A stretch of DNA of 64,000 nt from Octopus vulgaris (GCA_951406725.2 OX597818.1:79794001-79858000), one strand, 5' to 3'; shown: positions 4,522-51,316, counted from the first letter of the stretch. Program-made: numbers and translations. The notes: generated from the letters alone by a model not told the origin.

Positions 4522-4602
4522 AGCTTACAGATGTTTCTGCTATAGGCTGCAGTGGAGACATAGTTGATTGCCTCAGTAATACCTTATAGCTTCATAGGAG
4601 CT
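4522..4602 (-). ncRNA. Minimal hammerhead motif (core decayed to CCTATGA) within inverted repeat 4474-4533/4642-4706
   Basis: Minus strand: agct-CCTATGA-A-GCTATAAGG...CCTATAGC-A-GAAAC-ATCT-GTA-agct; stems I and II pair. Confidence 0.6.
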
Positions 4603-6649
4603 TCGAACATGAAGTGAGGAAAAGAAATACATATATAACAGCAGCTGTAAGCCGATGAAGTTCTTAAGATAATCATTTCTTGTTTTTTTTTTTCATCTCA
4701 TTTTCTTATTACCACTCTGTAATACTTCGTCCTGAAACATATGTGTACTGAGTCCTACACCAGGTTATTAGACTCGCAGTGCCTAAGTGATATATGTATA
4801 CATTCATATATATGTGTATATATATATATATATATATATATATATATATATATATATATATATATATGTCTGTATGTATGTATGTATTTATGTATGTATG
4901 TATGTATGTATGCATATGATTGTGTGGGTATGTGTGTATAGATATAGATATATATATATATATATATATATATATATATATATATATATATATATATAGA
5001 GAGAGAGAGAGAGAGAGAGAGAAAGATAGATAGATAGATAGATAGATAGATAGATAGATAGATAGATAGATAGATAGATAGATAGATAGATAGATAGATA
5101 CAGACATAATTTTTTTTTTTTTTTTACTTGATTCAGTCATTTTGACGGACGCCATGCTGGCACACCGCCTATAATCGAGCAAATCGACCCCAGGACTTAT
5201 TTGTAAGCCTAGTACTTATTCTATCGGTCTCTTTTGCCGAACTGCTAAGTTACGGGGACTTAAACACACCAGCATCGGATGTCAAGCGATGTTGGGGAAC
5301 AAACAGAGATACACAAACATATACACCCACATACATACATACATACATATATATATATATATATATATATATATATATATATATATGTTTGTATACATAT
5401 ACATGTATATATATGTTAGTTAGTTAGTTAGTTAGTTAATATATATATATATAGATATATACGACGGGCTTCTTTCAGTTTCCTTCTACCGAAACCACTT
5501 ACATGGCTTTGGTCGGTTCGAGGCTATAGAAAAAGACACTTGACGAAGGTGCCACGCAGATATACAGGTATAGATACGTGTGCGGATGTGAGTACGTATG
5601 TGTGTGTGCATGTGTGTGTGTGTGCGTGTGTGTGTACGTGCGTGCATGCGTGCGTACATGTCTGTATGTGCGTATTTGAAAAGTATGAACACATTCGTTC
5701 AATACATTAAGTAAGTATTCAAGGAAAAATAGTTGAGAATCCCTGACGGACTCGTTTTACTAATTACTGACTGACCGTCAGAGGAAGAACGCCCTATTTT
5801 CTTCCCCACTCAAGAGCATAGAATATTGGGTTACTATATAAAGCAGGCAGAAGCTAAATTACTACAGCGGTTGATAGGTTAATTTTGAATATTTGTGTTT
5901 TTTAACAGTTCATCAAAAATATGAAATATATATTTTATACACAAAAATATGCAATATATATTTTATACACAACATATGCAATATATATTTTATACACAAC
6001 ATATGCAATACATATGACATATGTGAAAGCATAGTAAGAAGGCAGAGATTTAGGAGATCCAGCCAAGTAATTCAGTGAGGGATCCATGCGAAATCCAGTC
6101 CAGCAAAATGTATTGGAAGGAAAATTAGATTTAGTATTCAGTTAATACACAAAAGATGTTCCATATAAACTATAAATCCAGGGAAATTAACTGATTATGA
6201 GATCGGTGGATCCACAGAAGATTATAAATTTAGAGAAAGAAATGTTAATGACTGTATGAGGGAGTTATGATTGTTTCGAGAATTAGTGCAATTGTGCAAG
6301 TTATTGTATATTACATATCTTTTTATTTTTATAACTCAGCTTGTTGATTGATGCAACAATTCCACTAATTATTGAAACGATCGTAACTGATGAATAAAAG
6401 CAATACTTCCATCTGCTTTTCTTTGTGTACATAAATGTATTCATTTCAATTCACACCGTGATCAAATTTGCCTTTCATCACTACTAGATCGATAAAATAA
6501 AGTACCAATCAAATATGGGAGTCGACTAACCATCTCCCTCTTCTAAATTTGGTGGCCTTTTACTAAAACTTGCAGCCAATGGTTTAACAACCATTATTAT
6601 TATTATTATGATTATTATTATTATTATTATTATTATTATTATTATTATT

Positions 6650-8455
6650 CAGTAGTTTTATTTTTATAGCGTGCTTTCACTTCACTACCGAACGCAGCTC
6701 TGTGTGCCTTGGGTATGTGTTGTGATTTGTTGTGATGCTCTGATGGTTATTGTATGGAAAGTGTTCTGCGTAGGATGTGTGCAGTGCCTAGTAGTGCAAT
6801 TTTCTGTATGTTATATGTGTTTGTAAGTGCTGGTGTTTTTGTTATGTATTTGTCTGAATATTTTTTTATCATGCCTAATGCACCTACTATGATAGGAATT
6901 GTTTCTGTTTTCAGAATCCACATTCTGGTTACCTCTATTTCCAGGTCTTTGTATTTCGAGAGTTTCTCCATTTCTTTTAGAGACACGTTGTCATCTGTCG
7001 GTATTCTCGTACATCAATTAGAAAGCATTTTTTTCTTCATGATCTCTGACAACTATATCTGGCCTGTTGGCCTTAATTTCTCTATCTGTGTGTATCGGCA
7101 TATCCCAGAGTATGGTTGCTTTCTCGTTTTCTGTGACCTTTTCTGGTGTGTGCCTATACCATCTTTTTTCTGTTGTTATTCCATAATGTTGGCATAGCTT
7201 CCAATGTATGTAGGTTCCAACTCTGTCATGTCTGTGAATATATTCCTTCTTAGCCAGGACTGGGCAGCTAGAGATAATATGATTTATTGTTTCTTGTCCA
7301 TCTCCACATATTCTGCAGTTACTTGTAATATTTCTTTTCATTACATGTTTTTGGTAATTTCTGGTGGGGAGGCTTTGGTCTTGTGCTGCAATTAAAAATC
7401 CCTCTGTTTCTGCTTTAAGTCCTGAGCTTCTCAACCATTGCTGGGATTTTTCTTTGTCTATTTCTTTTGCGTTTAGTTTAGTGCAGTATTTACCATGAAG
7501 GGGCTTTTCTTGCCATCGTTTTATCATGGTTCGTTGCTGTTCTATTTTTAGTTTGGATTTCATTTGTTTTATAGCTTTTGTTGTTTCTTCATCTTCTTCT
7601 TCTTCTTCTTCTTCTTCTTCTTCTTCTTCTTCTTCTTCTTCTTCTTCTTCTTCTTCTTCTTCTTCTTCTTCTTCTTCTTCTTCTTCTTCTTCTTCTTCTT
7701 CTTCTTCTTCATGTTTAATAGGTGGTATGATTTCTTGTTTGTATTTGTCAGCTTCCTTAAATACTGAGAACAATTTTTTTATTTTGCTCGTGTTTTGCCG
7801 CTATTTGTATCAGTTTTTCTTCCTTCTGAAGTAGATATTTTTGCATTCCTATGGTGGTTATTTTATAGTAGTTTTCCAGTTGTATAAGGCTTCTACCACC
7901 TTCTATACGTTCTATATATAGTCTTTCTATGTCAGATTTTGGGTGATGCATCCTAGATCCTGTCATTATTTTTCTTGTTTTCCTATCTACTTTGGTCAGT
8001 TCATTTCGTGTCCAGTTAAGGATATTGTAGCTGTAACTTATAACTGGGACAGCTAAAGTGTTAATACCTATTATCTTGTTTTTAGCATTGAGCTCTGTTT
8101 TTAGTATTGATCTAACTCGTCTATAATATTCTTTTTTTATTTTCTCTTTCATTTGTGTGTGTTGTGTCTTATCTAGTTCATGAATTCCTAAGTAGTTGTA
8201 AGTTTGGCTTTGGTCTAATTCTTTTATTTCATTGGTTTTATCTAGTGTGATGTTGCTACTCTTAACTAGTTTTCCTCATTTCATGGTTACTTTGGCGCAT
8301 TTTTCTAATCCAAATTTCATATCTATTTCTTTGGTAAATCCATGAACTATCTTTAATAGTGTTTCCAGTTGTTTGTCATTTGCAGCGTATAGTTTTAGGT
8401 CATCCATATATAAAAGCTGGCTGATCGTTTTGCCGTAACATTTATATCCGCATCT
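6650..8455 (-). mobile_element. 5'-truncated R4/Dong-clade non-LTR retrotransposon (RT C-terminus, CCHC zinc knuckle, restriction-like endonuclease), frameshifted
   Basis: LLYMDDLKLY (~8390-8415), AETEGFLIAAQDQSL, CRICGDGQETINHIISSC, HRHDRV, NRPDIVV and EKLSKYKDL motifs. Flanked on both sides by (TTA)n. Confidence 0.92.
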
Positions 8456-49979: not shown

Positions 49980-51189
49980 CTTTTGCAACACACGATTTCA
50001 CATAAAAAATCTTGCACAACAAATATATATATATATATATATATATATATATATATATATATATATATATATATATATATATATATATATATTATATATA
50101 TAATATGTATTTGTGTGTGACTGTCTCTTGTCTGTGTGGATGCACGCGCGATTGTATGTGTACCTACGAGTGTATTTGTGCTTGTTTGTCCCCCACCACC
50201 ATTCGACAGGTGGTGTTGGCGAGTTTACGTTGCGTAACTCAGCAGCTCGGCAAAGGTGACGGTAGAAAAGTAGCAACCTTTAAAAAATTTAACAGAATCA
50301 ATTCATTCCATTCAAAATTATTCAAAATGATGCCGCAGCATGGCTACAGTCTGATAACTGAAACAAGTAAAAGATAAAAGAAATAGGCCATATATATATA
50401 TATATATATATATATATATATATATATATATATATATATATATATATATACAATATTAAGGATTCGAAGCGCATGTTCCTAGATAGGTGAATATAATATA
50501 AAAAAGTAACAACTGAAGGACAGGTATCAGTTCATTATGGCCGTTTCTAACGACTCCTTTAATTGATTAATGAATACATTATATCATTATAAAGAAATTG
50601 TTTTCTGAAATAATAGTGTATTTATATCACAAGGAAAATTATAAATTCAACTCGGACTTACATATGTGCACCTGTGGATCTTAATGTAGTGTAAACGGAA
50701 TGCTGGTACTTCATATTTCGTATGTATATGCGGATATATAACACTTTGCATGGTATTGTAGTACTATTGTGACTATATTGCTAATAATGGAATCTATGTA
50801 TTGTTTTTATAGTATTAGCGTTATTAATAATAATATGAATGATGATATTGGTAGCATTAGTGGCAACGACAATGATAATGATGCTAACATTAATGACATT
50901 TTGGAAATTAATAAGAATTAATAGAATGTAATATTGACTCTCTATATCTGCATTTAGGTATTAATATGTGTGTTTTTCTACATTGTAATTATCACAATAT
51001 TAAGTTGAAAAACTGTAACATTGAATGTGGAACATATGTATGTTTGTTAATTTATATTATTTATATCATTATGTATATGTATATTTATATGTATAGGAGT
51101 ATGAGTATATGCACTCATATGTATATGTATATGTTTTATTATGGGTATGTACCCATGCCTATATAAGTATGTATGTAATTTTATTTGTA

Positions 51190-51316
51190 ATCTCCGAAGA
51201 GGCTTTAGGATATTTTTGTAAATGTCTCATTTATAACTACATATTGACCTACCATAAATGGCTAATATAAGTTGAATGAGACATGCTTATCTACATGGCC
51301 GAAACAGCTGTAAGAT
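51190..51316 (+). ncRNA. Hammerhead motif, CCGAAGA core, ~100-nt structured stem II
   Basis: atct-CCGAAGA-GGCT...(ATGTCTCATTTA / TGAATGAGACAT)...GGCC-GAAAC-AGCT-GTA-agat; perfect stem I. Confidence 0.78.

Follow-up and report, generated by a model that had tools for sequence, protein, structure and literature searches.

A 64,000-nt stretch of the Octopus vulgaris genome (GCA_951406725.2 OX597818.1:79794001-79858000; the whole stretch is called the window below) contains type I hammerhead motifs with C instead of U at position 4 of the core, and raises the question of whether this substitution (C4 in place of U4) is an inherited state of the repeat families concerned or a product of decay in single copies. 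Four window motifs, one each from repeat families designated A, B, C and D, were analysed; families A, B and C, with C4 in the window, are unrelated to each other, and D provides a U4 control. The source genome is 2.8 Gb, AT-rich and rich in microsatellites. The answer we favour, with a probability of roughly 0.6, is that C4 is inherited in the terminal type I hammerheads of Hydra-clade Penelope-like retrotransposons, and that these are slow ribozymes predicted to cut only as pairs.

The family A motif (51190-51316, plus strand) has the core CCGAAGA with C4 at 51195, loop III AGCT and a GUA triplet, with a predicted cut after 51312; its stem I is ATCT/AGAT, its stem II of ~100 nt is closed by GGC/GCC pairs, and its stem III is ACAGCTGT. 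The family B motif (45294-45345, minus strand) combines the core CCGATGA (C4 at 45340), loop AGCT and GUA with stem I GTCT/AGAC (one mismatch in the window copy), a stem II of 7 bp and the same stem III, ACAGCTGT. The family C motif (4522-4602, minus strand) is an old, decayed copy, 16% diverged from its family majority, with core CCTATGA, C at position 4 (4597), loop ATCT and GUA; its G5 and loop have decayed. In family C, stem I is GGCT/AGCT, stem II is long and stem III is palindromic. The sequence-only reading had singled out these three, giving the low end of each, and all are present well above chance: the window has 3 instances of the complete C4 layout, paired stem I included, where 100 dinucleotide shuffles gave 0.01 on average and never more than 1, and GAAACAGCTGTA with at most one mismatch occurred 3 times against 0.31 expected. 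It had also described stem II and flanks as unrelated and loop III as AGCT or one change from it, with a GUA triplet, and this agrees with what was found, the sequence common to A, B and C being limited to 15–20 nt around the stem III half. The family D motif (14816-14908, plus strand) has the core CTGAAGA with U4 at 14821. The earlier description put the motif at 14817 and gave it the same layout with U4; U4 is confirmed, the triplet is GUU rather than GUA, the start lies at 14816, and loop III is AGCC in the window copy and AGCT in the family. Within loop II of D, at 14843-14849, an inner CCGATGA, a C4-type core string, is kept across the family; as an alternative core it folded far worse than the outer U4 core and was rejected. 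It may be the remnant of an internal duplication.

Core letters C3, G5, A6, G8, A9, G12, A13, A14, A15.1-U16.1 and H17 are intact in the family majorities and example copies, while U at position 4, which counts as a hammerhead criterion, is the state of family D, and C prevails there in families A, B and C. The first look at the genome gave 1,543 (A), 1,481 (B), 662 (C) and 951 (D) candidates, with 40 scored and 30 loci retrieved per family; the copy sets are best matches to the window copy and thus lean slightly towards its letters. With the window copy excluded, and after removal of a truncated row and two duplicates from A and a misaligned row from C, position 4 was C in 29/30 copies of A, 30/32 of B and 16/29 of C, and T in 31/31 copies of D. 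The C4 motifs are accordingly not sporadic mutants in families with a U4 consensus, and the earlier proposal of a heritable core variant, with independent decay to the same base judged unlikely, is borne out by a C4 majority in A and B and a best-fitting C4 ancestor in C.

C4 and G5 form a CpG, and both of its decay products, CTGA and CCAA, are present. In family B the core CpG was CG in 27 copies, TG in 2 and CA in 3, close to a neighbouring CpG (25, 2 and 5). The core CpG of family C was CG in 11 copies, TG in 13, CA in 2 and something else in 3, and two control CpGs of the same family gave CG/TG/CA counts of 11, 10, 4 and 10, 6, 9. No column of the family C alignment co-varied convincingly with T4, and CG, TG and CA were all seen again in a second set of C loci chosen by upstream sequence. 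For family A, position 4 showed no letter other than C at 5% or more in contigs from four public runs under four organism labels, older subfamilies included. Judged from these copies, C4 is ancestral in A and B, and it is probably ancestral in C, where it is the best-fitting state.

How far C4 extends in the genome was examined with a pattern consisting of the core, a 15–45 nt spacer and GAAACAGCTGTA, with the reversed pattern as control. There were 2,474 CCGA, 2,262 CTGA and 373 CCAA matches, against 0, 1 and 0 for the respective controls. Because CTGA far outnumbers CCAA and, among the matches listed, includes stem II types not seen in the C4 ones, true U4 subfamilies must coexist with the C4 families; across the genome, U4 and C4 divide the short-spacer AGCT motifs about equally. 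A metagenome scan for the C4/AGCT layout returned two near-identical marine matches with poor stem I, which were judged to be chance. When other loops were admitted (G excluded at the second loop position), the C4 pattern gave 940 matches against 194 for the control, and two young families, F and G, both outside the window, dominated the 100 listed of the 940. Family F has an ATAT loop, fixed C4 and a motif-ORF-motif unit of 2,863 bp with a 778-codon open reading frame (ORF), which encodes a DKT motif and a Hydra-type reverse transcriptase (RT) and endonuclease; its copies are ~98.5–99.6% identical, and one near-intact young element has its ORF between two C4 motifs (L371:3967-6904, G000:C1). 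U4 relatives of family F, with GUC, exist. Family G has an AATT loop and fixed C4, and forms tandem arrays at many loci in which each 493-bp unit contains a C4 motif (L374:1869-4632, with 5.6 copies of the 493-bp period at 99% identity; L375-L378 and L383), and no ORF of 300 aa was listed at its loci. Locus L382 holds a C4 motif related to family G with compensating stem I changes. The link between C4 and an AGCT stem III suggested by the window motifs therefore does not hold: the young C4 families have ATAT and AATT loops, and U4 is common among AGCT motifs.

Nor do the C4 motifs amount to a single variant with a single history. This was read from endonuclease trees, on the assumption that each motif is inherited along with its endonuclease. 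A quick tree, built from 90 endonucleases, gave a 40-row clade (Shimodaira–Hasegawa-like approximate likelihood-ratio support, SH-aLRT, 93) with 20 C4 and 2 U4 among its 22 scored motifs (one doubtful match excluded), next to neighbours with nine clear U4 and no C4 motifs (three doubtful matches excluded); two C4 rows grouped with U4 rows in the second main clade. For a careful, unrooted tree, with groups chosen after sight of the first one, 25 rows that included A were picked by hand; it needed two state changes, a single change being enough in 0/200 bootstrap trees, and a single C4 clade was rejected (approximately unbiased test, p-AU 1e-11). With at least two state changes, an old C4 state with reversions and repeated gains of C4 both remain compatible with the data.

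The motifs of A, B and D were shown, from the coding pieces that accompany them, to sit in terminal repeats of Hydra-clade Penelope-like retrotransposons, and we infer the same for family C. In the window, the B motif lies in the 3' end of a 5'-truncated Hydra-clade element that ends in (TA)n (45237-45514, minus strand), adjoined by a family B inverted terminal 'tail' followed by a TA tract (45510-45569, plus strand), a layout typical of these elements; the A motif lies in the 3' untranslated region (UTR) and end of another 5'-truncated Hydra-clade element, which ends in a TA tract (50602-51726, plus strand). Extended upstream, family B reached a Hydra-type endonuclease ~1.1 kb away on the same strand, and in 18 of the 30 best genomic matches to that endonuclease (query locus included) the B motif follows it on the same strand at a distance of 0.9–1.4 kb. 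A Hydra-type endonuclease lies 2.3 kb upstream of the A motif on the same strand in L211, with pieces also in L204 and L004, and in L094 a Hydra-type RT, recognisable from residue 14, starts ~330 nt downstream of a D motif. The endonucleases of A (L211, L204), of the B lineage (L227, L228, L304) and of F are C-terminal and have GIY-YIG, no CCHH, and CxxC and CxH around a conserved E and N, and the published Hydra clade is defined by CxCX5C, CxxC, CxH and no CCHH (PMC8557442); the CxCX5C linker is present in A and B and absent in F. The N-terminus of the F RT has DKT, with RWL instead of RWK. RT pieces of A and B matched the F protein (tblastn), no intact N-terminus being found among the pieces recovered, and by eye the RT pieces resemble published Hydra proteins (PMC8557442 supplementary file S4). 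Copies show TA-tract ends, tandem and inverted layouts, two alternative 3' ends and inverted stubs, and the 3' UTRs of A and B are 1–2.3 kb long. The B endonuclease, searched against longer proteins, yielded no homologue, and no RNA source of family A was seen among the matches listed.

Other parents were considered and rejected. A Neptune-type endonuclease at 46122-46590 was not retained for B, as only 3/30 of its family's loci, the window included, had the B motif; the B motifs lie in insertions of their own within TA tracts that both share. The Neptune-type ORF that precedes A in L214 was discarded on the same grounds, and Nematis, an initial assignment of the parent clade, was dropped for Hydra on the published description.

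U4 is the one core letter that the C4 motifs lack; stems I and II are present in each, and stem III forms an 8-nt palindrome that leaves no space for a loop. Among seven C4 examples from different families or subfamilies, stems I differ yet remain complementary over 4–6 pairs, stems II differ, and three palindromic stems III occur (ACAGCTGT, ACATATGT and ACAATTGT), the rest of the core being unchanged. The predicted energy of stem III is +2.4 kcal/mol in a monomer and –6.4 to –11.1 kcal/mol between two copies, so that stem III is predicted to be stable only between two copies. Co-folding of two copies gave a full double hammerhead for F and G and an intermolecular stem III for A and B, at energies 8–12 kcal/mol below two monomers. 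It had been suggested from the window motifs that the variant might be attenuated, dimer-dependent or protein-assisted; folding supports the dimer, while attenuation and protein help are carried over from other systems.

The sources covered bear on both of these. U4 contacts the A6-N7 phosphate (PMC3088659), and a natural U4C viroid variant, the same substitution as here, had strongly lowered activity in vitro and still supported infectivity (PMC3088659, on Ambros and Flores 1998); the viroid change is a rare sequence variant, whereas here C4 prevails in several families that number thousands of copies in the genome. For a Poseidon element, priming is reported to be internal, and the hammerhead to cut only with the element's protein, cleavage being unneeded in vitro (PMC11167929). 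Published Hydra-clade hammerheads (Craig et al. 2021, PMC8557442), like those described here, are sense-strand type I motifs near the 3' end with, in most families, an additional unpaired letter flanking stem II on both sides; the elements share (TA)n targets and the endonuclease signature, and several motifs share the same ACAG/CTGT stem III arms. The published motifs differ in having U4 in 26/26 listed rows and a loop III of 1–3 nt, against C4 in several families and a loopless 8-nt palindrome here. The minimal metazoan hammerheads of Penelope-like elements with palindromic stem III (Cervera and de la Pena 2014, PMC4209133; reviewed in PMC6765202) share the short stem I, palindromic stem III, predicted dimer and occurrence mostly as solo truncated copies, and their low activity matches that presumed here; U3-A8 is the only core variant described in the text portions of PMC4209133 that were covered, and its searchable supplement holds no C4 core string. 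Animal non-LTR (non-long-terminal-repeat) retrozymes (PMC7229834; bioRxiv 10.64898/2026.07.22.740005) are tandem repeats with a type I motif per unit, as in family G, which differs from them in C4, palindromic stem III and a 493-bp unit against the 170–400 nt described. A literature search for C4 as the fixed state of retroelement families found none, only the viroid case and a CYGANGA descriptor, within a coverage that left out Lunse et al. 2017 and the PMC7229834 supplement, which may contain it. U4C itself is thus already known; its fixation in high-copy retroelement families did not appear in the literature covered.

In the mechanism we propose, the two palindromes of a tandem transcript (motif, ORF, motif) would pair to form a double hammerhead, which would cut after GUA and release unit-length RNA, possibly circularised afterwards. 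C4 would lose the U4 contact to the A6-N7 phosphate and so slow the cut. Genomic copies end ~55 and 207 nt (F) and ~240 and 410 nt (A) past the cut site, and because insertions end 55–400 nt beyond it, the templates of reverse transcription would be uncut or re-joined RNAs; a slow, dimer-gated and possibly protein-gated ribozyme could then be tolerated or favoured. Such tolerance would account for the persistence of C4 through subfamily turnover despite CpG decay to U4. A stronger version is tentative, and we consider it less likely than not: U4C would be a selected brake, reached or kept repeatedly by retroelements of this genome against the CpG decay that restores U4, and would keep the template RNA or its circle from being cut before a second copy, together with the protein of the element itself, permits it.

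Several points weigh against the combination of inherited C4, Hydra-clade hosts and slow, paired cleavage. Cleavage and the dimer are predictions from sequence and folding, and for A and B co-folding gave stem II and an intermolecular stem III with stem I incompletely closed. Rfam hammerhead models match none of the motifs: the window had no match at gathering score, and at E ≤10 there was no hammerhead among the 150 listed of 414 matches, the window's U4 motifs being equally missed. Hydra membership was assigned from motifs and by-eye protein comparison, and no Hydra-type endonuclease that could mark the parent ORF of family C was found in 30 + 30 C loci, whose copies are short as well as old. 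Family C may include a U4 subfamily, because the TG:CA ratio is 13:2 at the core CpG against 10:4 and 6:9 at the control CpGs. C4 is not required, since U4 and C4 subfamilies of this layout occur in similar numbers (2,262 vs 2,474). Finally, cleavage was dispensable for insertion in vitro, with no RNA reads ending at the site in the data given there (PMC11167929), and Naiad elements thrive without canonical hammerheads according to the literature, so the core could be inert.

This last point leads to the alternative that survives best, although we regard it as unlikely: the C4 motifs would be catalytically dead or irrelevant, their fold a protein-binding or priming landmark or a hitchhiker, and U4C would have drifted in where cutting was unneeded. 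Besides the success of Naiads without canonical motifs, it would explain why every insertion examined spans the cut site, and it fits the finding that hammerhead mutants had no effect on insertion in vitro, where unprocessed RNA was the main substrate (PMC11167929). Drift of a dead core is, however, hard to square with the other core letters remaining fixed while stems I–III were wholly replaced by compensating sequences across C4 families, or with the lack of any A4 or G4 among 124 distinct motifs in 1.49 Mb of retrieved DNA (a set in which the targeted families are over-represented); non-coding tandem arrays, too, have C4 fixed, and the life cycle described for such repeats uses cleavage (PMC7229834). 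A doubtful second alternative makes C4 fully active in its native setting, an equivalent core and no brake, with the contact restored by the dimer, the long stem II, a protonated C4 or the element protein. That the youngest families seen, F and G, are C4 would suit this, as would the CYGANGA descriptor in use, with which both letters were recovered from natural sequences (PMC13481778); the considerable loss of in vitro activity in the viroid case (PMC3088659) argues against it, and no common compensating change was found, position 7 being A or U in both C4 and U4 classes. That the window copies are three independent decays from U4 families, as the divergence and further decayed core of copy C might suggest, is extremely improbable and is already refuted for A and B by the family copy counts, since the majorities there are C4, mutation runs in the opposite direction (CpG to TpG or CpA), and 2,474 genome-wide C4 matches stand against 0 for the reversed pattern. 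A C-to-U editing switch at position 4 has nothing in the data to support it, no dedicated test having been made.

The window holds further hammerhead-related sequences. Three canonical U4 hammerheads whose palindromic stem III has an ATAT loop, absent from the sequence-only reading, lie at 32770-32847 (minus), 33834-33911 (plus) and 51899-51991 (minus), the first two forming a near-identical inverted pair 1 kb apart. Lone stem III halves, with upstream cores decayed-looking or missing, occur at 6374-6385 (plus, GATC), 29812-29823 (minus, GCGC) and 38179-38190 (plus, ATAT). A short near-perfect palindrome at ~44780-44830 has CTGAAGA on both strands and possibly consists of back-to-back stubs of another hammerhead family. 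Two truncated ends of Neptune-type elements, inverted relative to each other and 83% identical, occupy 45580-46990 in the TA tract adjoining the B stub. A very compact hammerhead-like motif in which A3-U8 replaces C3-G8, likewise absent from the sequence-only reading, occurs at 46759-46794 (plus) and 45753-45788 (minus) and sits ~170 nt after the Neptune-type endonuclease 46122-46590; A3-U8 is the common state in 46 aligned related loci, several subfamilies have an extra letter in the GAAA half, and a literature search found no paper on it. Small fragments of a Hydra-type RT (9729-9965, minus) and of a Neptune-type endonuclease (48933-49091, plus) are also present.

Why Penelope-like elements carry hammerheads is the wider question, since these motifs have been conserved although they cut weakly in vitro and the one reconstituted system can do without them. 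Here a ribozyme-weakening substitution is fixed in several successful families, including a near-intact young element and a retrozyme-like array, beside U4 sister subfamilies. In this genome, searches that require CUGANGA overlook roughly one in two short-spacer AGCT motifs. The C4 and U4 sister subfamilies are natural matched pairs for a cleavage assay, and thereby offer a direct route to the role of the hammerhead in Penelope-like elements.

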